From contig JAQOWU010000007.1 of assembly GCA_030867685.1 (NCBI GenBank), positions 930,001-994,000 on the forward strand: 64,000 bases of DNA, written 5' to 3'. This DNA comes from Wickerhamiella versatilis. Lineage: Eukaryota. Both the position numbers and the translations under genes were made by a program. Of the stretch, positions 21,403-57,235 are shown in pieces (within the stretch, counting starts at the first letter, position 1; every line of letters starts with the position of its first letter). The notes under the pieces were generated by a model. It searched no databases and was not told where the DNA came from. It saw only the letters and a program-made list of their open reading frames with translations.

Positions 21403-23136
21403 ATGGCTGAGAAGCGACAGGGAGAGAATGGCTCTGAGCCTGTCGCTAAACGGCCCACGCTCTCAGAGTCAGGCCCATTGACACTTGAAGATGTTGATGA
21501 ATTCCAGAAGGAGGCAATATGGCGTCAAATGAACTATTATCGGCGGGAGCGAGATGTCGCGTCTGCAGCGCTGAAAAATCTTGAGATTACGGATGACAAG
21601 GCGTCTGCTCTACTTCAAGAGCTTGAAGATGTTACCAAGAAGTATATTGAGGCAAGCAAGCAAGTCGAGCGACTCAAGAGCCCAACCGTTCAAAGATGCG
21701 CTCCCGACCAGCATACGTCAAATGCTGAGGTTAAAGAAGAACAAAAAGACACTAATAGCAACGAGGCTCCATCAGAAGAACTTCAGCAGAAGTTAGCCTC
21801 GCAGGAGGAAGAGCTTAAAGGCTTGAAGGGAATCAGTGATATTCGTGACGAGCAGCTCGCTAAGGCGGATGAGCGGATAGCCGAATTAGAGGCACAGATT
21901 AGAGACTTCGAAGTGCGTCTCTCAAGCCTCCCAGAAGACGTGGTCCGCAAAAGTGATATATATGTTGGTGTTGAGCGTCAGCTACGCGTAATGTTTTCAG
22001 AAAACCAACGCCTAGAAAGCGAATTACAGTCTTTGCGTAGGGATTTAGGCAATGCCAAAGCTGAACAGGCAGCGTTTGAGCTTAATGTGAGAGACCGCTT
22101 CGATACCGAAAGACAACAGTTGGAAAAGCGCCTAGCACAAGCTGAGGCTGATGTTACCAGAATACGAGGGGCCCGCGATGAGTTACTGAGTGAATTAAGT
22201 ATAGCCAAAAGCGGAACTGCGGAAAGGGAGATCACTCTTCGAAGATACAAAGAATTGGTTGCTGAGTTGGAAGCACGTATTAAGGCTGTAGAACGAACCG
22301 AGCCCCCACCCGTTGATGATACCGAGCCAGCCCCAGATGCTTCAGTCGAAGATCTAAAAGAAACTATAAAGAAGCTGACCCGGCAGAATAAGGCGCTGGC
22401 CGCCGAGATTCCAGGCCTGGAGCAAGCGTTCGCAAAAGCCCACAAGAAGTCGTCGTTGAAAATGTCCGAAATCACGGGGCTCGAGACGAAACTATCTGAG
22501 GCTGCAACATCCAAGGTGAAAGCCGACGAACGGTATTTTGGAGCTATGCGTGCAAAAGATGCGTTGAACGCCGAGTTTATAAGGGCTAAGGCAGCCTTGA
22601 CCAAGTCCTCAGAAATTGTGGCTGATCTTCGCGAGTCTGAGGCGCGCATAACCTCTCAACTCTCAAAATCGCGCCGCGAACTGGCAGAATCGGAAGCTGC
22701 AAAGGCCAAACTCCAGTCACAGTGTGCATATATTGAGACCAAAAGAGTAGACGCAGAGGCAAGAGTGAGTGCTCGAGAACACACAATTGACTCATTACAG
22801 CAACAGCTTAATGACAAGGAAGCTGCTTTGCAAGCTGCAGGGAACCAGCGACGTCGCAATGAGCAACAGATTGAAAAGCTGCGACGACAGGCGGAAACCC
22901 ACCGACTCACGAGTGGAGCCGGAGGCTCTGCGGCCATACAAGAGCAATTAGAATCCTTACGATCGATAGCTTTATGCTCAGTATGCCAAAAAAATTGGAA
23001 GGACACTGCAATTAAAATATGTGGACACGTGTTCTGCGGTGACTGCGTCCATTCGCGCCTGGCTGCGCGTATGCGGAAGTGTCCGATGTGTAACTGCTCC
23101 TTTGGTCAAGGTGACATTCTCACAGTCCACTTGTAA
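21403..23136 (+). CDS. BRE1: H2B E3 ubiquitin ligase Bre1
   Basis: PLT.EDV..FQKEAIWRQM..YRRE, KADERYFGAMR, C-terminal RING CSVC..NWKDTAI..CGHVFC. Confidence 0.95.
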   Translation: MAEKRQGENGSEPVAKRPTLSESGPLTLEDVDEFQKEAIWRQMNYYRRERDVASAALKNLEITDDKASALLQELEDVTKKYIEASKQVERLKSPTVQRCAPDQHTSNAEVKEEQKDTNSNEAPSEELQQKLASQEEELKGLKGISDIRDEQLAKADERIAELEAQIRDFEVRLSSLPEDVVRKSDIYVGVERQLRVMFSENQRLESELQSLRRDLGNAKAEQAAFELNVRDRFDTERQQLEKRLAQAEADVTRIRGARDELLSELSIAKSGTAEREITLRRYKELVAELEARIKAVERTEPPPVDDTEPAPDASVEDLKETIKKLTRQNKALAAEIPGLEQAFAKAHKKSSLKMSEITGLETKLSEAATSKVKADERYFGAMRAKDALNAEFIRAKAALTKSSEIVADLRESEARITSQLSKSRRELAESEAAKAKLQSQCAYIETKRVDAEARVSAREHTIDSLQQQLNDKEAALQAAGNQRRRNEQQIEKLRRQAETHRLTSGAGGSAAIQEQLESLRSIALCSVCQKNWKDTAIKICGHVFCGDCVHSRLAARMRKCPMCNCSFGQGDILTVHL

Positions 23137-23277
23137 TCTTAGTTTTCCCTAGGTACCCTCCTATATTCTTTCCTAGGTTAGTATTCTGTCATTTAATGTA
23201 TGGGTTAGTCAGTATAGCGCGTCTTGTTACTCACGCGTCTCGAGAGTGAAAGCATCTCAAAAACGGATACACACCGC

Positions 23278-26200
23278 ATGGCAGACTTCATATCATGGAG
23301 ATCAAGTCCAAATGCCTCGAGAGAACCGATAAATTCACAAGTGCTTCGTGATGCTGAGTCTCAGTCAAGTAAAGCTGCCAATGAACCAACAGCGCGAGCT
23401 ACTGATATACCCATTACCGACCCCGTTAACGAACTTTTGAATAAATTTTCTGGCGACTTACCTAGTTCTCCGCTCCTTTCAACAAGGAAAAGCCCCAAGG
23501 CCCGAAAGCGTGGACGTTCATTCTCAGGTCGAAGCCCTGTGGCCCCAGCGCAGAGAACTCGCACAGAGGTTCCAGATACCAGTGATGATATTAGTTTTGG
23601 TGAGCTACTAGAAAACTTTGGAGTGGATACAAGCAATACCTCTATGCCAGATACAAGTGAGGCAGTCTCAAGACGCTCTGTTCCCAACACGCCACAAAAA
23701 AATTCAGTGCTAGCTGCACCACAGAGTTCACCAAACCTTCTTGACATTGAGGACCTCGGTCCATTAACTCCTGCTTTTAAATATGTCCCGATTGACTTTC
23801 GGAATCGCCGTTCCCATAGATATGTGGTTCAATCGAGCAGCGCCGCGGGTACGTTCGAGTGTACGACCAGTGACGATAGAACCATCACATTGATTTTACG
23901 CGATTCATGGATTGGTGCTGATGTTAGAGCAGGTAATCATGTACATGTTATTGGTTTGCTCAAGGATGATGATGGCATAGTTGAGGTTTCGCACTCTAAC
24001 AACCGGTTGCTAATTGTTGAACCAGATACACTGATAACCATCACAAATGTGGCTACAGCGCTGGAGTGCGAAAGACAGGTTGCTTTGACAAAATATGTTC
24101 GTCCCCCATCAGAAGTTACGAAGCCCTTGTTGTATGGTACTATCACGCACGAATTCATTCAGCAATGTTTTCTTGTAAAGGACTTTTCGATAGAATTTAT
24201 GAGGCAGGCCCTTAATGATACAGTCGAGCACTACGTGGATGAGCTCTCACTCCTCGATATGACTTCGGATGAAGCTGTATCTGAGCTATCAGGTAAGTTA
24301 TCGACAATTCAACAATGGAGTCAAAAGTACCTAAAGGAGGGAGGTCGCACAGTTCCCAACGTGCCTGTTGCAGCTCATAGGGGGAGACTCACAATAGCAA
24401 TGGCACTTGAGAGGGTGGTCGATGTCGAGGAGGAAATACGTTCACCATTTCTAGGCCTGAGAGGTCGTATTGATGCAACTGTTGAAGTTTCCACGGCCGA
24501 TGGTGAAATAATGCTTGCACCACTAGAGATTAAAACTGGTAAGCGTGAAACTAGTGCTGCGCATCGTGCTCAGGCTATGCTTTACACGCTATTAATGCGT
24601 GAGCAGCATCCAGGCAATGCACACCCATGGAGCCTACTATGGTATGCTGATATTGGGACCATGATCGCCGTGGACCCAAGCTCTTTGGAGTTGCGGCAGT
24701 TGGTGCAAAAGAGAAATTCCTTGGTACGTGCTGTCTCTGGAGCAAATGTAACTCCTCTACCCCCGCCCACCACACAAATCCAGACATGCCAATTTTGTGC
24801 ATTTCAATCGGCTTGCTCAACTTACACACAATCAGCCGGAGAAACGCATGAGGCCGTCACAGATACTTATCCAGTGGACGATTTGGCGCTGAAGTTTTTT
24901 GAAAAATGGGATAATCTTATTACTCTTGAGAGTCTTCAAGAACCATTTCATCAGACCTCTCCTTGGTGGACAAATCTCAATGTGCCAAGGTATACATTAG
25001 ATGCGGCGGAAGAATCTTCGGGCGAGTATGTTCTTCGTATAGTTGACGGCATTCAGCATGAGGATATATTTCCCGGAACGAGAGTGATTCTCAGCACACC
25101 CCATCATCTTGGAATTGCTCGAGGGTATTGTCTGCAGCCTGAAACACCTCTTTCGGGTTGCATCAAAATCAGATGTGATCGTCCCCTTCTTAGGTCCTCT
25201 AAGTATCGTGTTGACATTGAGTCATTTGATGCAGTAACGCCGATGGCCCGCTATAATCTGGTGCATCTAGTGGCAACCCCAGAACTGCCCCTTCGTGATC
25301 TAGTGGTGCACCTTCGTGCGCCCCGATTCATCGACAGCCATTCTGACATGCCTATTAAAGGACTGAATGAGGATCAAGCGCATGCCATAAGACTGGTTGA
25401 GCGTGCAGAAGACTACGCCCTCATACGAGGCATGCCTGGGACTGGCAAGACCACTACAACCGTCTCAATTATTCAGTTGATGTTGTCCCGCGGTCAATCT
25501 GTTCTAGTTACGGGTTATACGCATTCGGCTGTGGACAACATTGCTGCGAAGTTGATTTCACTAGGCACAAGCGTGCTTCGTTTGGGAAGTTCGGACAAAG
25601 TTCATCCTCTGGTTCGACCTTCTCTTAAATTTGATGGTGTGCCTCAGGTTGTCGCATGCACGGCACTCGGGATAACGGATCCTTATTTCAGCACAAGGGA
25701 GGCATTTGACTGGTGCATTGTTGATGAAGCTTCCCAGATATCACTTCCGGTATGCCTTGGCCCCCTTCGTCTAGCCCGACGCTTCGTGCTGGTGGGTGAC
25801 CATTACCAATTGCCACCACTTGTACGCTCTCTGGATGCCAAGTCTGGGGGTCTGGACCAGTCATTATTCAAGATTTTATGTGAGAAGTATCCCAATGCGG
25901 CTGCTAGTCTTACACGGCAGTACCGTATGTGTGAGGATGTTATGTTGCTATCGAGCCGCCTGGTTTATGGCAATGGCCTTATCTGTGGCTCGTCTGATGT
26001 GGCAGAGCAAAAGCTTGGTATCGAATTATCTGACACTGTTCAGGGGTGGCTACGTGATGCACTCAATCCCCGTAATAGGGTTGTATTTCTAAATACTGAC
26101 ACTGTGGATCGAGCGACTCAGGAGATCGCTCAGGCTGATGGGTCCAGTAATCCTGTGGAGGCTGACATAGTGCATAAAATCACTACAAATCTCCTCGAAG

Positions 26201-26535
26201 CTGGTGTTTCAGGTAAGGATATTGGTGTTATCAGTGTTTACCGTGCGCAAATTCAGCTGCTTCGTACTAGATTGCCACCAGATGTTGAGGTTCTGACTGC
26301 AGATCAGAGCCAGGGTCGTGATATGGATGTTGTAATCGTGAGCTTGGTCCGTTCAAACACAAGAAGCCGTACAGGGCTACTACTTCGCGACTGGCGACGA
26401 CTTAATGTCGCATTCACTCGCGCCAGGTGTAAATTGATCATTGTGGGATCGAGAGGTACACTTTTAGGTGGTACTGCATTGCATCCCTATATAGAGCTCA
26501 TTGAGCAGCGGGGCTGGCTGCGAAATGTATACTGA
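23278..26535 (+). CDS. DNA2: Dna2 nuclease/helicase
   Basis: Fe-S Cys motifs, GLRGRIDATV, PLEIKTGK, Walker A GMPGTGKTT, VDEASQI, LVGDHYQLPPLV, RRLNVAFTRA. Confidence 0.95.
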   Translation: MADFISWRSSPNASREPINSQVLRDAESQSSKAANEPTARATDIPITDPVNELLNKFSGDLPSSPLLSTRKSPKARKRGRSFSGRSPVAPAQRTRTEVPDTSDDISFGELLENFGVDTSNTSMPDTSEAVSRRSVPNTPQKNSVLAAPQSSPNLLDIEDLGPLTPAFKYVPIDFRNRRSHRYVVQSSSAAGTFECTTSDDRTITLILRDSWIGADVRAGNHVHVIGLLKDDDGIVEVSHSNNRLLIVEPDTLITITNVATALECERQVALTKYVRPPSEVTKPLLYGTITHEFIQQCFLVKDFSIEFMRQALNDTVEHYVDELSLLDMTSDEAVSELSGKLSTIQQWSQKYLKEGGRTVPNVPVAAHRGRLTIAMALERVVDVEEEIRSPFLGLRGRIDATVEVSTADGEIMLAPLEIKTGKRETSAAHRAQAMLYTLLMREQHPGNAHPWSLLWYADIGTMIAVDPSSLELRQLVQKRNSLVRAVSGANVTPLPPPTTQIQTCQFCAFQSACSTYTQSAGETHEAVTDTYPVDDLALKFFEKWDNLITLESLQEPFHQTSPWWTNLNVPRYTLDAAEESSGEYVLRIVDGIQHEDIFPGTRVILSTPHHLGIARGYCLQPETPLSGCIKIRCDRPLLRSSKYRVDIESFDAVTPMARYNLVHLVATPELPLRDLVVHLRAPRFIDSHSDMPIKGLNEDQAHAIRLVERAEDYALIRGMPGTGKTTTTVSIIQLMLSRGQSVLVTGYTHSAVDNIAAKLISLGTSVLRLGSSDKVHPLVRPSLKFDGVPQVVACTALGITDPYFSTREAFDWCIVDEASQISLPVCLGPLRLARRFVLVGDHYQLPPLVRSLDAKSGGLDQSLFKILCEKYPNAAASLTRQYRMCEDVMLLSSRLVYGNGLICGSSDVAEQKLGIELSDTVQGWLRDALNPRNRVVFLNTDTVDRATQEIAQADGSSNPVEADIVHKITTNLLEAGVSGKDIGVISVYRAQIQLLRTRLPPDVEVLTADQSQGRDMDVVIVSLVRSNTRSRTGLLLRDWRRLNVAFTRARCKLIIVGSRGTLLGGTALHPYIELIEQRGWLRNVY

Positions 26536-26848
26536 CTGAACCTTATTTATATGTGAATTCTTTTTTCAAAAGTAAATATATATATGCATAAGCATTACTG
26601 TAGCTATTTTATATTGTAGTAAGTATGTCCTTTGCTCGACTTATATGTTTTACTTTCTCAACCTTTCGTATATTATGCCGGTAGTTCCTATCCTATTCTT
26701 CGCTTCATTAGTACCTCTATAAAGAACTGAAATACAAGTTTGGCAACGTATGATGATGGTAGCTCATATCCTTCCCGTGACTAGTGACAGGATGATAAAT
26801 CACAAGCCTAATTGTGTAATCATCGTCATCTCATTATCATCCGGCATA

Positions 26849-27739
26849 ATGCACATCAGTCGTATGTTTCTTCACCCGGTAAAGGCGTTAAAGTCTATCG
26901 AGGTTTCAGAAGCAACTCTTGGGTCCTATGGGTTTGAATATGATCGGATCTATATGTTAGCGATGACACAGGAGGGTAGTGATAGTTACAAGTTCTATTC
27001 ACAACGACAGGATCCAAGGCTGGTCCTTGTTAAAACTGCCATAGATGATGGCTCTATTGTAATAAGCTATGAAAATCATGAGTTTCGACTACCGGCTAAC
27101 TCTGTGCATTCCTTTAGAGATGCACCGACGGTAAGTGTCTATATCTTCGACACACTTGTAGATTGCCTTGACGTAACGAGTCAGTTCGATATATACCCGT
27201 TGTTTAGCGCTGTTTTGGGGCCCTCTGATGCAAGGAAGCTTCGACTAGTCGCCCCCAGCCAACGGCGTACAGTCCCAACAAGCATCCCGGAAAATCTGCT
27301 CCCGGATGTGGACCACCCTTTACAGTTTGTATTTCAGGACAAATATCCAGTGCATTTAATAACCGATGCAAGCTTCAATTCCCTAAAAGACCACGTTGAT
27401 TCCCAGACTGATGGTAGTGAGGGCCTAGAAGTTCAGAGTTTCCGCCCCAACATGGTGGTGGAGACTGATGAACCTTGGGTGGAGGATGATTGGAGGGTCA
27501 TCCGGATTGGGGGCACTAAGTTTTTCGTCGCGGATACCCGCGAGCGGTGTCCTGTCCCCACTGTGGATGTCAACCAAGGCTATTTCCGTAAGTCCAAGGA
27601 ACCTTACAAGTCTCTAAGTAAATTCCGAATCCTCAAGCAGGGTGAAAGGCCGAGTTTTGGAGTGGATCTGGTGCATTTTGGCCGATCTCCCACGGTGCAC
27701 GTGGGAGATTCTGTGGAGGTCTTGGAGTCCGTTGCATAG
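26849..27739 (+). CDS. MOSC-domain (mARC-like) protein
   Basis: I..MFLHPVKAL, YDRIYML, FQDKYPVHL, FRPNMVV..PWVEDDW, RERCPVPTVD. Confidence 0.88.
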   Translation: MHISRMFLHPVKALKSIEVSEATLGSYGFEYDRIYMLAMTQEGSDSYKFYSQRQDPRLVLVKTAIDDGSIVISYENHEFRLPANSVHSFRDAPTVSVYIFDTLVDCLDVTSQFDIYPLFSAVLGPSDARKLRLVAPSQRRTVPTSIPENLLPDVDHPLQFVFQDKYPVHLITDASFNSLKDHVDSQTDGSEGLEVQSFRPNMVVETDEPWVEDDWRVIRIGGTKFFVADTRERCPVPTVDVNQGYFRKSKEPYKSLSKFRILKQGERPSFGVDLVHFGRSPTVHVGDSVEVLESVA

Positions 27740-27999
27740 ACAACTTGTTTTTACTCGTTGAATTATAATTTAACCCCTATATGTATTTATGACCAGCGCT
27801 TCACTCTTCCATCGGCCGCAGGATCAGATAATACTGTTCCTATCAACATCTGGCATGTGCGTAGAGGCCTTGTTATGTAATTCGTGGGTAAGGATAAGCT
27901 TGGATGTGTATACCCTTGCCCTTTTATGTGATGAACGTGTAGCACGTACAACTATAAAGACCCCAAGGTATCTCCGCTCTAAGTTTCACACTTAACACT

Positions 28000-28314
28000 A
28001 TGTCTGGACGTGGAAAAGGAGGCAAAGGACTCGGAAAGGGCGGTGCCAAGCGTCACCGCAAGGTCCTGCGCGACAACATCCAAGGTGTAACTAAGCCAGC
28101 TATTCGCCGTCTCGCTCGCCGTGGTGGTGTGAAGCGTATTTCAGCTCTTATTTACGAACATACCCGTATCGTCCTCCGTGGATTCCTGCACAAGGTCATC
28201 CGCGATGCGTATACCTATACGGAGTACGCGAAGCGTAAGACCGTGACCGTGCTTGATGTCGTTTACGCCCTCAAGCGCAATGGCCGAACTCTTTACGGTT
28301 TCGGTACTAAGTAA
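28000..28314 (+). CDS. Histone H4, divergent variant
   Basis: Canonical tail [20 protein letters not shown] with many histone-fold substitutions and a GTK C-terminus. Confidence 0.95.
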
Positions 28315-28796
28315 GTAATCTTTATATTTATTTAGCCTCATGTATGTGTATACACAAACTAGCTGAGTTAACCACCCCCACACGTTGTCGATTCTCGTGA
28401 TGACAGATCATTACCCATCATCAAAAAACGTCCGTCTAGAAACTCGCGATAGTTCGTGATTTTGAACGCATCCCTTTTTTTTGTTACGATTGAAATCGGC
28501 TTGACCATATTGTGACCGGTGGCTCTAGCTAAAATGTCCCATCCGTGGATTCGTTCGCGGTTGCAATGATCTGTCCGAGAGTTTTACTGAATTAAGTGAC
28601 TCTTGATCTTCTGGAAAAATCTGGGCCGCCCTGACTTCTAGTAATTAATTGATTTTTAATCTGTCTGTAGAACCAGTTCTAGTCTTTTTCAGTATTTTTT
28701 CTTGATTAAGTTGCAATATTATTCTGCGTTGTCCTGTATCCTACATCGTACCGCCCTGTTCGACCCACTCCTGCGGTCTCCATGATTAAGTGGCTA

Positions 28797-29042
28797 AAGT
28801 TCTAAGTACCTAGGTGGCTTTTGGTCTGTTTACCCTACTAAATTGGTTTGGTACTGAGCAAAGTTCTGGGTATTTAAGTGTCTTTTATTCTAGTCATCCT
28901 GCTAAATTGGTTTGGTGCTGAGCATTTAAGTGTCTTTTGGTCTGGTTATCCTACTAAGTTGGTTTGGTGCTAATTTCTAAGCATTTAAGTGCCTTTTGGT
29001 CTGGTTATCCTACTAAATTGGTTTGGTGCTGAGCAAACGTTC
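28797..29042. repeat. Degenerate minisatellite, 4 copies of about 50-65 bp
   Basis: Repeated core tttaagtgtcttttggtctggttatcctactaaattggtttggtgctgagca. Confidence 0.85.
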
Positions 29043-29414
29043 TATCTAGGTATGGTTCTTGTTCAATTGACTATCGAGCCAACCAATCTTGTGACCGGGT
29101 CCAATCCTATCTGTTTTCTTGGTTTTAGTATAATCTGGTTTAAACGTCACGATGTTAAGGCTTGGTCACATTTATCGAGCTATGTCTGGATAAATGATAA
29201 TAAGTTATACTGCTAATTTAGAATACATAACTCTAAACCTGGTTCAACCCGGACCACCTAGAGAAGAAAACAAGGAATAAAATAGAAGTACATACGTATA
29301 ATAACACGCGATAATTGCTAATATATAATGGCGTATATACCACCGAGCATATCAGTAGTGGTGGTACAATACACGGATTCGTCATCACACACTTGATCTG
29401 ACTGGGTTGGAGGA

Positions 29415-30077
29415 ATGCAGGACCCTAACGAGGATACTGAGTGGAACGAGCAACTACGAAAGTTTGGAATTCTCCCCGAGAGGCCAGAATCGCCCACAAA
29501 GCAAATAGAGGAGGCGTTCGAGCAGGCACTCGAGAAGCAGCATGCAAACAGACTAGAGGGCAAGTCTCTCGACGAGCTTGACGAACTCGACGAAGACGGC
29601 CTGGAGGACGAGGATTTCATTGAGCAATACCGCCACAAGCGCATGGCGGAAATTCAACAACAGGCTGCACGCGAGAGGTTCGGAGAGGTCGTACAAATCA
29701 CAAAATCCGAGTACAAGGACGAAATCACAGAAGCATCCAAAAACTGGCCCGTTTTTGTTCATATTTCGTCGAGCCAGTCTATCCAGTCCCGATTGTTGCA
29801 TGGGCTACTGCTGCGAGTTGCCCCGCGATATAAAGACATCAAATTCGTGGAAATCGACTGTTCGCAAATCAATGAACGCTTCCCGTTTTCACAATGCCCG
29901 ACTATCCTGATCTACAAAGAAGGGAATGTTGTATTCCAGCAAGTGACGCTTAGTGCATTTGGGGGCAATTCGGCGAACTTAAGGGACGTGGACGATATGC
30001 TGACGCGGGCAAAGGTCGTGGGTGAATCAGACCCGCGGTTGATAGTGAACAAGGACGAAGATTCAGAGGATGACTAG
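29415..30077 (+). CDS. PLP2: Phosducin-like protein
   Basis: MQDPNEDTEWN..LRKFGILP, YRHKRMAE, thioredoxin-like fold with PTILIY. Confidence 0.93.
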   Translation: MQDPNEDTEWNEQLRKFGILPERPESPTKQIEEAFEQALEKQHANRLEGKSLDELDELDEDGLEDEDFIEQYRHKRMAEIQQQAARERFGEVVQITKSEYKDEITEASKNWPVFVHISSSQSIQSRLLHGLLLRVAPRYKDIKFVEIDCSQINERFPFSQCPTILIYKEGNVVFQQVTLSAFGGNSANLRDVDDMLTRAKVVGESDPRLIVNKDEDSEDD

Positions 30078-30303
30078 GCTTGCAATCGTACTCTACGAAC
30101 TATGTAAATAATGCACCACGGTACGAATTTCGCACATGGCATGGAACTAAGCAAAGAGTCGGAACCTTCATATTACACAATAGAAGATGAGAAGGATCAA
30201 CTATTTCAAAAGGAAAAAAAATATTCATTAAGTAAATGTCTTCTTAACGTAATAAATAGGATCACCTAATTAAGCTGCCGGAGTCATAAAACTAATTCAA
30301 AGT

Positions 30304-30328
30304 ACGCGTGTTAGTCACGCCGACGCGT
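30304..30328. promoter_or_regulatory. Tandem MCB (ACGCGT) elements; single MCBs also at 10541 (NUF2) and 23233 (DNA2)
   Basis: ACGCGT at 30304-30309 and 30323-30328 before a G1/S replication gene. Confidence 0.7.
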
Positions 30329-30331
30329 CAA

Positions 30332-33127
30332 ATGGAAGCTGTGCTACCCGAGTTGAGGAGCCATGTTGAGGATTTGGTATACGAAGTGGGCTCAGTCGAC
30401 GAGGTAGAGGATATTGGGAAATACAAAGTGGGCGAAAATGCACACCATGCACTGCATCAACTTCGAATGTGGATTATGCTCCAAGACGCCCCTACGCAAG
30501 ACCCAGACGAGGAGGACGAGGAGATGGAGAAGAGGCGAGATATAGGAAGGTCAGTATGCCGTGTAATTGCAGATACAACGTTCGTTACAGCTGATCTGCC
30601 GGAAATTTTGAGCCAATGGGAACGCGGGGCTGGCGAGGGCATGGACGAGTCGATTGTACGTGCCGCGCTAGATCTTTTAATTCCACTCACGCGCCCCATA
30701 TATACAACGCCACCTTCGCGTACAGCTTATGCCGCCACAATGAATAGGGTACAGAGAAGATACAAGCGGGCAATTCTTACCCATCCACAGCATAATGTAC
30801 TTACAGCGACTTTTCGCCTAGCACTTGGCTCTATGCAGAAGCAGCCAAAGGAACGAACCCCAGACGATGAATGGACTATTGCATTGCCACTGCTTCTTAT
30901 CCGAAACTTGCTCTCGATCGACGACGATGGCGGGGAGGCTGAAGACTTAGGAAGGGCAGATACGGTTCTCGAGCTTGCTCGTCAAAATGCATTAGAATTT
31001 CTCACTGTCATAGCGGCGGGACTGGACAACAACTTCAGGCACCATGAGACCATGCTACTAGAGTGCCTGTACCATCTTCTCCAAAATGTTGATGCAGACC
31101 GCCTCTTTAGTCCCCTCTCGGAGACAGAGAAGTTGAATCACGACCTGGGAGAGATGCTGAAGGTCGAGAAGGCAATGAACAGTGCTCGATTCCAGCCAAC
31201 GAGGCATTCGCGGTTTGGCACCTTGATTTCACTTCGCACGTCAGAAAATACTAAAATGTCCGTCTCAGGCCAACGAGGCATCGCCGGTGATGCTGTTCAA
31301 ACCATGCAGTATGTCGATGAACAAAAGAAGTGGCACCGTCCGAGGCAACGACGCAGGCTCGAGCATCAGCCTTGGTCGGCAGTGGTATCCCTTGGTCCAG
31401 AGGCTGGTCCTGTCGTTCAGAAGTGGGCTACTCGCTTCCTTGATGCTGCGTTTAATCCATGCTTCAAGCGATTCAGGAAAATATTTGATGACGACATCCC
31501 TGGTAGCGAGCGTCATCCCAATTATACCGAACACCAGATGTATTATTCTTATTTAGTGGGATGGTTTTTGAGGGCTGAACTACGTCGTGGAAGGATAGAC
31601 TTCGCATTGATTGGTGAGGCAATCTTGCCCGAATCATTTGACACTATGTTTGGCCTTCTTTGCAAAGGTCGGGAAAAGGGGGCAGATCAAAACAATGACC
31701 TCGTGCAGGCCGCAATGATGGGCCTCCGTCAAATGCTTTTAGCTGTTTGGATGATGGGAAGAGCACCAAGCCAACAACTGAAAGACACCGCAACAGGTAT
31801 AAGAGCCCGCATATTTTACAGAGAGATCTGGCTAGACGTACTGGCACGAATACCGCGTGATGCCGCTAAACATACTCTAGCATATGCATGCGAGTGCATC
31901 AGCCTAACTCACATTCTGCTCAAAATGTTGGATGAATATTCGGGCCAGCATAACTATCTTTTCGTGAAGGCCCAACGTAAGAAGAGGGGAGAGCCCGAAA
32001 ATGACGACGACGTTAAAGATTATCAAGAAGCAGCCCGAGTCACTGAAGAGCGAAAGATTGAGTTAAACAAGTACATTCGCCGATTTATACATGAAGATGT
32101 TTTAGATGTTTATGAGAAAGTACTTGAGAATTTCCGGGACGCCTCGTCAGAGTCGTTGCGCCACGTTCTTTCCTTTTTCCATCGCACGTTCATTAAATTG
32201 GGGGAGCATGTCTTATTTTGGCGACTATCGCTTATGCGCACGCTACTACAGGTCTGCAGTGCGCGTACAGGGCTTGATGATACCGATCTAAGGCGCCAAT
32301 ACGACAAATTCCTTGCCTACTTCTATTCAAAATTCCGGAAAGCGCTGGCTCGCTCTCCTGTGCTGCTCATTGAGGTGCTATTTGAAAAGCAACCTTACGA
32401 AATGAGATATCTTGAAACAGGTGAGGCGCCTTCAGGCACCAAGGAACAGACAAACTATGCACAGCATGAATATGAGTTCAACCAGGATCTTCCGGTAGAT
32501 CGTCGTATGGCCATAGTCGTCGGAGCCCTACTTGCTCGGGACAAGGGCGAATGGTGCCAGTGGGCGCAGGATACCCTGGCTGCCCAGGCTGAATTGCCCG
32601 AAGAACAGATAACGAAAACGCGTGTGTTAACGCACGACCGCAAGTGGCTCCGTTTGATAGCCGGGGATGCTATGTTCAGGCTTCTGCTGAGTAGCGCGGG
32701 AATCGTTTTTGCCGACAAGCCATTGGTGCCCGGGTCCCTAGAGCCGGTTAATTTGATTGAAGCGGCAGAGGCTATGCATGAGGCACGGGCCTTTGGCAAG
32801 GCGGTCGATGGAGATACAGCTTTGGACTATATAAGAATAGCTGGTACCCACTATCCAGATTCCGAGGCTGAGGAAAGTGCAGGAGAAGAGGAGAACCAGG
32901 GATTTAACGATCCTCGACTTCAAGCAGTTCCAGGCGCGCAGAATCGGCAGCAAAAGAGTCGCAAAAGAACCAAGAAGGTCGCTCCGGAGCCCAGGCAGGA
33001 CACTGCAGAGAGCGATTCGTCCGAAAATTTGTTTGTTGATGATGATCCCGTAACCTCCCCGCCGCCCATGGCAAAACAGGACGAGCCAATAAAACGCAGG
33101 AAATTATTCGTGGACGATTCTGATTGA
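30332..33127 (+). CDS. TOF1: Replication fork protection protein Tof1/Timeless/Swi1
   Basis: YKVGE.A...L, DLPEIL, LIPLTRP, LIRNLLSI, TRHSRFGTLI; two MCB sites immediately upstream. Confidence 0.9.
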   Translation: MEAVLPELRSHVEDLVYEVGSVDEVEDIGKYKVGENAHHALHQLRMWIMLQDAPTQDPDEEDEEMEKRRDIGRSVCRVIADTTFVTADLPEILSQWERGAGEGMDESIVRAALDLLIPLTRPIYTTPPSRTAYAATMNRVQRRYKRAILTHPQHNVLTATFRLALGSMQKQPKERTPDDEWTIALPLLLIRNLLSIDDDGGEAEDLGRADTVLELARQNALEFLTVIAAGLDNNFRHHETMLLECLYHLLQNVDADRLFSPLSETEKLNHDLGEMLKVEKAMNSARFQPTRHSRFGTLISLRTSENTKMSVSGQRGIAGDAVQTMQYVDEQKKWHRPRQRRRLEHQPWSAVVSLGPEAGPVVQKWATRFLDAAFNPCFKRFRKIFDDDIPGSERHPNYTEHQMYYSYLVGWFLRAELRRGRIDFALIGEAILPESFDTMFGLLCKGREKGADQNNDLVQAAMMGLRQMLLAVWMMGRAPSQQLKDTATGIRARIFYREIWLDVLARIPRDAAKHTLAYACECISLTHILLKMLDEYSGQHNYLFVKAQRKKRGEPENDDDVKDYQEAARVTEERKIELNKYIRRFIHEDVLDVYEKVLENFRDASSESLRHVLSFFHRTFIKLGEHVLFWRLSLMRTLLQVCSARTGLDDTDLRRQYDKFLAYFYSKFRKALARSPVLLIEVLFEKQPYEMRYLETGEAPSGTKEQTNYAQHEYEFNQDLPVDRRMAIVVGALLARDKGEWCQWAQDTLAAQAELPEEQITKTRVLTHDRKWLRLIAGDAMFRLLLSSAGIVFADKPLVPGSLEPVNLIEAAEAMHEARAFGKAVDGDTALDYIRIAGTHYPDSEAEESAGEEENQGFNDPRLQAVPGAQNRQQKSRKRTKKVAPEPRQDTAESDSSENLFVDDDPVTSPPPMAKQDEPIKRRKLFVDDSD

Positions 33128-42259: not shown

Positions 42260-42811
42260 TTATGCTTTCTTCAAATCAAAACCCCACGACTCCTCGCCTG
42301 GACGTGTCTCGTAGTACTTGTCTAGAGGCACACCATGGTGCTCGTGGCGCACCAAGTTGAACCAAGGCAAAATGGCCAAGTTAAGCTGAGAATAAGTCGA
42401 GTTTCGCGCAGCGACGCCTCTCAGCCATGGTGGCAGAGAGTTTTCATCTACTTCGTATGGGTCCAGCCCTTTAGCGAGCCGGCTCTTGATCTCAAATCGA
42501 TCCTTGGAGACTTCACGTGCGTTCTCATTAATTCCTTGGAAACGAAGGGTTGAAACTGCGTAGCTATCAAGAAATCCCGCTGTAAGTCCCAAAATAGTTG
42601 CTAGACGGCCCATACGAGGACTCACATGCACACGTTTGCCGCCTGAACTGAAATAGGAAGTGGCTGCGAGGAAAGCTGGGCCACTAATACCAAACAACCC
42701 AATCTTCACATAATCGGACGACCTAAAGTACCCCACCACTCGCTTGAAGTGTGGGTCCTGGTCGATTATCTCGTAGGGGGCGTTGTGCAGGACAACGTTC
42801 GGCGAGCTCAT
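42260..42811 (-). CDS. Fungal complex I accessory subunit NUXM (21 kDa)
   Basis: YEIIDQDPHFKRVVGYFRSSDY, S.LRF.G..ENAREV, AARNS.YSQL...LPWFNLV.H.HHGV...KYY. Confidence 0.9.
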   Translation of the reverse strand: MSSPNVVLHNAPYEIIDQDPHFKRVVGYFRSSDYVKIGLFGISGPAFLAATSYFSSGGKRVHVSPRMGRLATILGLTAGFLDSYAVSTLRFQGINENAREVSKDRFEIKSRLAKGLDPYEVDENSLPPWLRGVAARNSTYSQLNLAILPWFNLVRHEHHGVPLDKYYETRPGEESWGFDLKKA

Positions 42812-54829: not shown

Positions 54830-57235
54830 ATGGCTGGGGGAATTAAGCGATACTTCCAGCCTGCTAGCGCAAAATCTGATCCACAATCTAGTGAGCAAGG
54901 CGAACCTTCGCCAAAGCGTGCAAAAGAAGAACCTAAGGACGAGATTGATCTGACCAAGGAAGAACCTGAAGATGTGGTAGATTTGACTGGGAGCACAACC
55001 TCTACTTCTGTTTCTTCGAGACAAAAGTCTAGCAATAGTGATAAACCGAAAGGAACGAGCAAGAACACAACGCATGAGGTAAAAAAGGAATCTGGTACGC
55101 GTCCTAAGTCAGCTGCGGATATTCTCGCAGGAATTCCAAATGTGGAACTCCCGGACATTGACCCCCATCAGAAAGTTAATTTACATCAAGTTCTTCAGAA
55201 CCAAAAGACATCTGATGGAGAATTTGGCCCTGAGCCTGATGCTGCCCCTGATTGTCTTACTGGGTTGACCTTCGTAGTAACGGGGACCTTACCAACTCTT
55301 GGACGTGACCAAATCACTTCGCTCATAAAACGCCTTGGAGGCCATGTAACTTCCAGTTTAAGCGGACGTACATCGTGTGTAGTTCTTGGTGAGGATGCAG
55401 GCCCTTCGAAAATAGCCAAAGCCCGCCAACTTGGCCTCAAGGTGATTGATGAAGCAGGATTTAGGAAGCTTCTCGATGAAATGCCTGCAGGTGGGGGGTC
55501 TGGTGAAGCTGCCAAGAAGGCCCACGAAAAGCAAGCCCAGGAGCAGCAGAGAGCTCTTAAAAAGGCGAAAGAGTTGACTTCCCACCAGGCTGATACGAGC
55601 AATCAATTGTGGACCGATAAATACGCACCTCGTTCTTTGTCGGATATAGTCGGCAATCAGACCGTGGTCAACCGCCTGAAGAACTGGCTCTCAAATTGGC
55701 ATCGGTATCGCAAAGCAGGGTTTAAAGCAGGCTTGGGCGAAGGGTCCGAATACAGGGCAGCAATTTTACACGGAGCTCCGGGCATAGGCAAGACAACTGC
55801 CGCACATATAGTCGGAAAATTATGTGGCTATGATGTGCTTGAGTATAATGCTAGTGATACGCGCTCGAAAAGTTTGCTGCAGCAACATGTCTCGCAAACA
55901 TTATCCAACACGACTTTGGGGAAAAAATCCGAACAGCAGTGTATAATTATGGACGAAGTCGATGGTATGAGTGCAGGTGATAGAGGTGGAGTTGGTGCGA
56001 TGGCTCAGCTGGCGCGCACCACCAATATCCCGTTGATACTTATTTGCAATGAACGAACTATTCCTAAAATGCGTCCTTTTGATCGAGTCACGTTTGATTT
56101 ACCCTTCCGTAGACCAGATGCAGGAGCGATAAAGCATAGAGTCATGGCAATTGCTGCAGCGGAGGGATTGAAATTGGAGCCTTCGGCTATCGAGCAGCTA
56201 TCTCAGTCTACTCGATCTGATATGCGTCAGATCCTCAATCTTCTTTCCACATACGCGACTACAGCAAAGCAGATGTCCTTTGATAATTCACGCTCATTTT
56301 CTAAGAGCTGGAACAAAGAAATCGTACTTAAGCCTTTCGATATCGTGTCTCGCTACCTTAGCGGTGGCTACTGGCGACAGGGGTCTTTGAACGAACGCAT
56401 TGAGCTATATTTCAATGACTACGATTTTTCACCGTTAATGGTTCAGGAAAACTATCTAAATACGGCCCCTGCTGCGGGAAGGCATCTTCAGCAAGTCTGC
56501 GAAGCAGCAGATTCCATCTCTTTCGCAGATGTAATAGATAGAAAAATTCATGGACCACAACAGATGTGGTCTCTTATGCCTCTCCATGCTATCTATTCAT
56601 GTCTTTATCCCTCAAGCCTTGTGGCAGGCCAAGCTCGTGGCCGTTTTGGCTTCACATCCTTCTTAGGTCAGAATTCGAAGGCAGGAAAGTACCGCAGGCT
56701 TCTAGCGGAAGTGAGGTCTCACATGCGTCTAAAATTAGCAGCTACCACCCAAGACTTACGTTTGGAGTATCAACCAGAACTTGTGGAGAGACTTCTAGCA
56801 CCTCTCTTGAACAGAGGTCAAGATGGCATACCCGAAATCATAGACTTTATGGACAACTATTATCTCACACGCGAGGATTTTGATGTTCTTATGGAGCTAG
56901 GTGTTGGTCCAAATTCATCTGAGATGCGGGCGAAAAAGGTCCCCACAGCGGTGAAAACGGCTTTCACGCGTAAGTATAATGCCAGTTCGCATCCTCTGCC
57001 CTTCATGAGGAATATGGAGTCGAAAACAGCGGCAAAGCGAGCACCTCCTCCGGACCTGGAAGAGGTTGTTGATGATGATATGGAAGCAGAACCTGAACAA
57101 CCGAACGAGCCATCTTTGGAAGAAAAAATTGCATCCGACAAATATATTCAGCGGCCAAAGGCTAAGGCGAAGCCCAAGACTGCAGCAAATTCTACTAAGA
57201 GGAAGCAGCCAGCAAAGAAACAAGCGAAAAAGTAA
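54830..57235 (+). CDS. RFC1: Replication factor C large subunit
   Basis: BRCT CLTGLTFVVTG, LWTDKYAP, GAPGIGKTT, NASDTRSK, MDEVDGMSAGDRGG. Confidence 0.97.
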   Translation: MAGGIKRYFQPASAKSDPQSSEQGEPSPKRAKEEPKDEIDLTKEEPEDVVDLTGSTTSTSVSSRQKSSNSDKPKGTSKNTTHEVKKESGTRPKSAADILAGIPNVELPDIDPHQKVNLHQVLQNQKTSDGEFGPEPDAAPDCLTGLTFVVTGTLPTLGRDQITSLIKRLGGHVTSSLSGRTSCVVLGEDAGPSKIAKARQLGLKVIDEAGFRKLLDEMPAGGGSGEAAKKAHEKQAQEQQRALKKAKELTSHQADTSNQLWTDKYAPRSLSDIVGNQTVVNRLKNWLSNWHRYRKAGFKAGLGEGSEYRAAILHGAPGIGKTTAAHIVGKLCGYDVLEYNASDTRSKSLLQQHVSQTLSNTTLGKKSEQQCIIMDEVDGMSAGDRGGVGAMAQLARTTNIPLILICNERTIPKMRPFDRVTFDLPFRRPDAGAIKHRVMAIAAAEGLKLEPSAIEQLSQSTRSDMRQILNLLSTYATTAKQMSFDNSRSFSKSWNKEIVLKPFDIVSRYLSGGYWRQGSLNERIELYFNDYDFSPLMVQENYLNTAPAAGRHLQQVCEAADSISFADVIDRKIHGPQQMWSLMPLHAIYSCLYPSSLVAGQARGRFGFTSFLGQNSKAGKYRRLLAEVRSHMRLKLAATTQDLRLEYQPELVERLLAPLLNRGQDGIPEIIDFMDNYYLTREDFDVLMELGVGPNSSEMRAKKVPTAVKTAFTRKYNASSHPLPFMRNMESKTAAKRAPPPDLEEVVDDDMEAEPEQPNEPSLEEKIASDKYIQRPKAKAKPKTAANSTKRKQPAKKQAKK

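Follow-up and report, generated by a model that had tools for sequence, protein, structure and literature searches.

The histone H4 gene analysed here probably belongs to a set of three dispersed genes that encode the ordinary H4 of its lineage, judging from the parts of the other two copies that could be read, and would not encode a special-purpose variant. The gene lies in a 64,000-nucleotide stretch of DNA from Wickerhamiella versatilis (referred to below as the window), and about a dozen substitutions in its protein would have been fixed in a short burst before this species and its sister species split, and would have remained almost unchanged since then. An earlier sequence-only reading of the window had offered two interpretations: a specialised variant with a developmental, spore or centromeric role, or an accelerated H4 shared by the whole lineage. 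The latter is the reading that we favour, as 7 of the 15 derived features were found in the other H4 copies of the species and the protein of the sister species is identical at 103 of 104 positions. The specialised variant is not supported, given the derived residues in paralogue reads and contigs and the lack of a canonical H4 contig in run X12, an isolate-type assembly of the same species.

The H4 gene and its protein

The features of the gene, all on the plus strand, are as follows.

27953..27958 (+): TATAAA box, some 30 bases ahead of the main mapped 5' end, its role being judged from that distance
27988..27999 (+): 5' UTR with the main transcript start, a 12-base leader defined by the read starts of RNA run X24
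28000..28314 (+): histone H4 coding sequence (CDS), 104 codons plus stop, intronless, read directly
28315..28373 (+): 3' UTR and poly(A)-site region, with molecules ending at about 28348, at 28355 and at 28372-28373

The H4 open reading frame was found to be intact, encoding 104 amino acids without an intron, as had been stated from the sequence alone. Solved histone H4 chains matched residues 1-102 of the window H4 at E values of about 1e-52 (best 9e-53). When the window H4 was compared with human-type H4 (P0089), 14 of 102 residues differed, and the first difference was at residue 29. Residues 1-28 were identical; R3, K5, K8, K12, K16, H18 and K20 of the tail were all kept. The differences from human-type H4 are I29V, G48A, E53H, G56I, K59R, V60G, E63H, N64K, V70Y, H75Y, A83V, M84L, Q93N and G102T, with an extra K103 at the C-terminus. 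Inspection by eye found the modification or DNA-contact residues K31, S47, K77, K79 and K91 intact, the exception being K59, which is replaced by Arg. The net charge (K+R-D-E) of the window H4 was +22 versus +18 for human-type H4, which agrees with the earlier description of a more basic protein.

Compared by eye with the S. cerevisiae chain 4kud_B, the window H4 had 16 substitutions and an extra C-terminal Lys. The list of substitutions drawn up in the sequence-only reading was correct for 13 of these and for K103, but had missed I21V, V54T and S69A, the three positions at which S. cerevisiae departs and the window H4 has the general consensus residue. Of the substitutions relative to human-type H4, G48A and M84L occur in other fungal H4s too, for example in chain 4xyi_B. 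We also compared 71 distinct H4 cores drawn from 258 proteins, after removal of duplicates, of four sequences of the own lineage and of matches aligned over fewer than 96 residues. Among these cores H53, I56, H63 and Y70 had no occurrence, and Y75, V83 and N93 occurred once each.

The codon bias noted from the sequence alone was borne out, with CGT or CGC used for 14 of the 15 Arg codons of H4 and AGR for none, compared with an AGR share of 32% in nine neighbouring genes, and with a GC3 of 0.54 in H4 versus 0.44 in the same nine genes. Pfam returned weak histone-fold matches for the window H4, with CENP-T_C below the cut-off and TAF at the cut-off, because no dedicated H4 model scored. We regard the window H4 as belonging to the canonical H4 family, in a diverged form, and not as a new kind of histone variant. 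A literature search found no description of this H4, and none of the papers listed in it dealt with histone H4 in Starmerella or Wickerhamiella.

Neighbourhood, gene copies and transcripts

Upstream of H4 on the same strand are a Dna2 helicase-nuclease gene and then a MOSC-domain gene, whose stop at 27739 is 260 bases before the H4 ATG. On the downstream side, a non-coding spacer of about 1.1 kb, which contains a tandem repeat, separates H4 from a gene for a phosducin-like protein and one for Timeless/Tof1. A divergent H3 gene would not fit beside H4. When 30 ORFs of at least 150 amino acids in the 64-kb window, 50 of 51 ATG-ORFs between 70 and 149 amino acids long (all except H4 itself) and four neighbours were scanned, no histone-fold family was matched, and tblastn of H4 against the 64-kb window returned H4 itself only. 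By these ORF family scans, neither the 28 kb upstream of H4 nor the 36 kb downstream of it contains an H3 partner, and the earlier statement that a divergent H3 partner is missing holds for the 64-kb window.

The tandem repeat in the spacer behind H4 (28814-29035) has units of 59 and 111 bases in 2-3 copies. In run X12, 111 bases of this repeat were absent (joint 28863 to 28975), and reads of RNA run X21 skipped similarly; the copy number of the repeat therefore varies between strains. The RNA depth over the 1.1-kb spacer was about zero. Genes for replication and chromatin functions lie around H4 at 21403-33127 and 54830-57235, namely a Bre1-like E3 ligase, Dna2, Tof1/Timeless and, farther away, RFC1, and this clustering may be due to chance.

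The DNA of the window is that of a compact, intron-poor eukaryote with a G+C content of about 46%, and most of the public sequencing runs in which the stretch occurs are food-fermentation metagenomes. The RFC1 protein of the window has its best named relatives in Sugiyamaella (60% identity), Blastobotrys (57%), Trichomonascus (56%), and Geotrichum and Yarrowia (55% each), which therefore places the host among the Dipodascales-type budding yeasts. A gene for the 21-kDa subunit of complex I is found at 42260-42811, so respiratory complex I is retained in this yeast. Complex I retention sets this yeast apart from the Saccharomycetaceae and agrees with the position among Dipodascales-type yeasts that RFC1 indicates.

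The number of H4 genes was assessed from public runs aligned to positions 27000-30100 at 80% likeness. For the isolate-type assembly X12 the whole run was read (4,647 records, 10.2 million letters), and three records covered the full H4 CDS. Record 1 is the window locus. Record 2, a contig of 91,416 bases, matches 27999-28304 without a gap and differs at 37 letters (88% nucleotide identity), and its letters behind 28304 complete Gly-Thr-Lys-stop. Record 3, a contig of 31,243 bases, fits 28000-28316, that is, through the stop codon, with 47 other letters and no gaps (85% nucleotide identity). The flanks of records 2 and 3 are unlike the window, and the likeness among the three copies ends exactly at the ends of the CDS, which argues for selection on the protein. 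In X12, 46 of the 88 changed places were C>T or T>C, as expected if most of the differences between copies are synonymous. Metagenome run X6 contained the same two extra records with the same difference counts. Thus, the H4 gene of the window is solitary by position only and not solitary in the genome; the earlier label 'solitary' stands for the neighbourhood and fails for the genome, given the three CDS-length matches in X12.

Some residues of the other copies could be read from RNA reads whose loose ends derive from paralogues, these ends being unassigned as between record 2 and record 3. Translated by eye, the loose ends at 28153-28164 gave Tyr-Glu-His-Thr (1,084 reads in X24, 25 in X21). 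Those at 28168-28179 gave Ile-Val-Leu-Arg (16 reads in X21), and those at 28240-28257 gave Thr-Val-Thr-Val-Leu-Asp (234 reads in X24, 30 in X21); all three differ synonymously from the window copy. Every place of the paralogues that could be read had the derived residue. The features read outside the window locus are H53, I56, R59, V83, L84, T102 and K103, or 7 of 15, while V29, A48, G60, H63, K64, Y70, Y75 and N93 lie outside the paralogue reading. The idea raised in the sequence-only reading that all H4 copies may share one sequence fits these 7 of the 15 derived features, which are the ones that the reading covers. No contig with a canonical-type H4 was found in X12 at 80% likeness among the records that passed the filter of the alignment. 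From these contigs and reads we infer that the three genes would encode fully identical H4 proteins and that this species would be without any canonical H4.

Run X6 also held the H4 gene of another organism (record 7, fitting 28024-28305, on a contig of 32,033 bases at depth 16.2). Its loose ends show a tail start with Lys at 3 and Ser at 5 and an end of Gly-Val-stop, and its middle 85 bases are of the same length and diverged, so that it represents a second unusual H4 in the same habitat. As record 7 is absent from X12, it belongs to another organism. Its recovery also indicates that alignment at 80% likeness can pick up foreign, differently coded H4 genes.

The transcripts were analysed in RNA runs X24 and X21, which come from a strain that carries the same species label and differs from the window. 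In run X24, 484 reads start at 27988 and are preceded by letters like those of a template-switch oligo. Starts further upstream were present too, with 28 molecules beginning at 27951 and a depth of 178 at 27965. The 3' UTR of this H4 copy is 34-59 bases long in the poly(A) library X24. With the three copies summed, the depth over the H4 CDS in X24 was about 10,400 versus about 100 for the MOSC gene and 70-100 for the phosducin-like gene, or about 100 times, and in X21 it was about 1,350 versus 110-230 for the neighbours, or about 10 times. Among the tagged 5' ends listed for X24, 484 belonged to this copy, 396 to the record-2 type and 8,019 to the record-3 type, giving this copy 484 of 8,899 listed ends, or about 5%, in this one run. 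An Rfam scan of 27000-30000 had no family match, hence no histone 3' stem-loop. A search of the window for the consensus of the Spt10-type histone upstream activating sequence (UAS), with at most one mismatch, gave 26 matches versus 26.4 expected, and none in 27740-27999. The H4 gene is working and expressed, and is neither silent nor decaying.

Two side observations were made on the RNA strain. At 27007-27472, in the MOSC gene, runs X24 and X21 have 22 fixed differences from the window, with none listed at 27473-27747, and DNA runs X12 and X6 match the window at 27007-27472; the RNA strain has a locally much more diverged haplotype there. At 27965, one base is absent in most RNA reads (152 of 178 in X24, 21 of 25 in X21). 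Two database proteins, P0035 and P0122, come from this locus as well, but gene callers had read through upstream and lengthened the H4 ORF by 33 and 48 residues. The one-base loss at 27965 explains this read-through, and P0035 and P0122 are artefacts of annotation rather than longer proteins.

The sister species and the rival explanations

The H4 protein of the window is found as P0121 on 23 contigs of public assemblies. When 8,000 proteins from a 5.8-billion-cluster protein collection were scored, only P0121 itself and P0036, from the sister species, were more than 88% identical to the window H4. P0036 is identical at 103 of 104 positions, the sole difference being Ala69 to Ser. All other H4 proteins among the 8,000 scored reached 86-88% identity at best, and there was no H4 of 89-98% identity among the matches listed. 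Likewise, nothing closer than 88% was found among single-copy matches in the best 150 representatives of 1.84 billion, which are near-canonical H4s with extensions; in that representative search P0011 had 90% identity over residues 4-102, but this is a longer protein of two stretches. A degenerate pattern for the 13-residue derived motif matched the H4 gene only in the window and had 0 matches in the JGI metagenomes. As no intermediate H4 was listed, the substitutions would fall on the short branch leading to both species and would have been followed by strong purifying selection.

The neighbouring genes give a measure of the distance between the two species. Tof1 of the sister species (P0124, on one contig only) is 76% identical to the Tof1 of the window, and the RFC1 region (P0126) is 90% identical, with the next relative at 67%. 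In the Tof1 protein search only 2 of 7,999 candidates matched at E 1e-20 or better, a low number that is probably due to low-complexity words taking up the list of candidates. It is most likely that the sister species carries its near-identical H4, P0036, at the same place, beside Tof1 P0124, a placement based on the equal length (80,604 bases) of the longest contig listed for the two proteins.

These data were weighed against three other explanations. It is hardly credible that the gene is a silent or decaying extra copy, as its solitary position and its minor contribution to H4 mRNA could suggest. The reading frame is intact, 484 tagged reads mark a defined start of the message, whose 3' ends are defined too, the codon bias is retained, the identical protein recurs on the 23 contigs, and the probably syntenic copy of the sister species is identical at 103 of 104 positions versus 76% for Tof1. 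Silence and neutral decay, which the sequence-only reading had kept in view, are contradicted by this expression and conservation. A true H4 variant, distinct from a bulk canonical H4 and marking centromere, spore or silent chromatin, is very improbable. X12 had three CDS-length matches and no canonical-type piece, and a foreign H4 was caught in X6. Both other copies keep the Thr-Lys end, paralogue reads carry His53, Ile56, Arg59 and Val83, and H4 mRNA of this type at 10-100 times the depth of its neighbours fits a bulk histone. On the other side are the 14 changes from human-type H4 in a near-invariant protein, its more basic character and its solitary gene, and also the consideration that a canonical H4 less than 80% alike in DNA could escape an alignment at 80% likeness.

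Another explanation concerns the use of the gene. The solitary copy could be a replication-independent 'replacement' supply of H4, active outside S phase or in stress, starvation or sporulation, with the copies that are presumed to lie beside H3 serving replication. Animals have solitary polyadenylated H4 genes encoding the same protein as their cluster copies. In keeping with such a role, the copy stands alone, since the scans of the 64-kb window matched no other histone-fold ORF, is preceded by a TATA box and a leader of 12 bases of its own, lacks an Spt10-type UAS match (at most one mismatch) in 27740-27999, and contributes a minor share, about 5% of the listed tagged 5' ends, in an RNA run of growing-culture type. 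However, all yeast histone mRNAs are polyadenylated, so poly(A) is non-discriminating, and a weak promoter could explain the low share. We consider this role possible but rather unlikely.

We therefore return to the ordinary core H4 encoded by three dispersed genes. As such, the protein would pair with H3, be deposited on replicated DNA and form nucleosomes, like any H4. With the tail and alpha1 essentially untouched, it should bear the usual marks on its tail and make the usual contacts with chaperones. The solitary copy has a TATA box and a 12-base leader of its own and a polyadenylated message, and it provided about 5% of the H4 transcripts in the one run in which the copies could be distinguished.

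Placement of the changes and comparison with known H4s

The structural reading was based on helix periodicity, S. cerevisiae papers and the usual helix limits of H4. A monomer AlphaFold model was weak (pLDDT 71, pTM 0.32) and was used only for positions 42-79, which form one helix. On a helical wheel, 8 of 8 alpha2 changes fell within an arc of 160 degrees (p about 0.014), and in the longer helix of the model 9 changes fell within 180 degrees (p about 0.025). The unchanged hydrophobic residues L58, F61, L62, V65, I66 and A69 occupy the opposite side of alpha2, which we take, from nucleosome structures, to be the face that packs against H3. The changes would thus lie on one face of alpha2, away from the H3-packing face, and at the C-terminal end. 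Two acidic side chains are lost with E53H and E63H and basic ones gained with N64K and K103, and Tyr stands at positions 70 and 75, where H4 meets H2B.

Reports on S. cerevisiae and on reconstituted nucleosomes bear on some of these positions. H4 H75Y is described in S. cerevisiae as a viable recessive suppressor of a silencing defect, with more spreading and stability of silent chromatin, and the same report predicts a stronger H2B/H4 contact and a weaker Asf1 contact (PMC2587916). The H75 side chain is described as buried, with hydrogen bonds to E96 and T99 of H2B (PMC6698655). Nucleosomes have been reported with dye-labelled H4 E63C, so that a dye-bearing Cys is tolerated at position 63 (PMC3082900). 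By analogy, we infer that nucleosomes with the window H4 would be less acidic on one face and that their H4-H2B joint would be tightened or re-fitted, and matching changes are probably present in H2B or a chaperone.

The closest comparison among known systems is with HHF1/HHF2 of S. cerevisiae. The tail and alpha1 of the H4 protein (4kud_B) are identical apart from I21V and I29V, and in both yeasts intronless genes are present in several copies, apparently for a single protein, and give a very abundant, polyadenylated mRNA. In contrast to HHF1/HHF2, the window copy has no divergent H3 partner, and its protein has the 16 substitutions and the extra Lys. The laboratory allele H4 H75Y of S. cerevisiae has the same change at the buried H4-H2B contact, whereas the change here is natural, fixed and accompanied by 11-13 others, including V70Y nearby. 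Among animals, Drosophila His4r is an example of a solitary replication-independent H4 gene encoding the canonical protein. Animal solitary genes of this kind resemble the window gene as lone polyadenylated genes for apparently the same protein as the other copies, but polyadenylation is common to all yeast histone mRNAs and is not special to the lone copy. A survey of yeast histones gives, for this part of the tree, one cluster of each histone pair in Starmerella and Yarrowia and two in Nadsonia (PMC10917516); by those counts, three H4 genes including a lone one would be a small departure.

The window H4 was also considered as a candidate H4E, the ascomycete variant of Flipphi et al. 2024. 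In that study, H4E is described as diverging mainly in N- and C-terminal extensions in which the Lys/Arg pattern is altered, and as having its own intron pattern and weak expression; it coexists with canonical H4 in Pezizomycotina, basal Taphrinomycotina and Glomeromycota, and is given there as not found in Saccharomycotina (PMC10878826). Both are fungal H4-family genes that depart from the canonical sequence. Unlike H4E, the window H4 keeps the canonical tail, is intronless and highly expressed, and is seemingly the only kind of H4 present. We rejected the assignment to H4E on the canonical tail to residue 28, a C-terminus changed only by G102T and the added Lys, the lack of an intron, the budding-yeast host and the fact that no canonical H4 was seen in X12 at 80% likeness.

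A further proposal, which we put forward only tentatively and regard as rather doubtful, is that the H4 of the whole lineage was rebuilt adaptively, in a single step. The drop in acidity on the alpha2 face and the two tyrosines gained at the H4-H2B joint, including a natural H75Y, would have co-evolved with H2B, Asf1 or a reader of the nucleosome face to give more stable or differently read nucleosomes, perhaps suiting hot, acidic or high-sugar fermentations. Three copies would have followed, one of them a separately regulated, solitary supply.

Regardless of that proposal, H4 is among the slowest-evolving proteins, and here about a dozen changes in the fold would have been acquired on a short branch and then frozen. 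The 103 of 104 identity of H4 between the two species, set against 76% for Tof1, would make them a natural experiment for learning which positions of H4 are able to change together. The natural H75Y would lend itself to a test for compensation by partner histones or chaperones.
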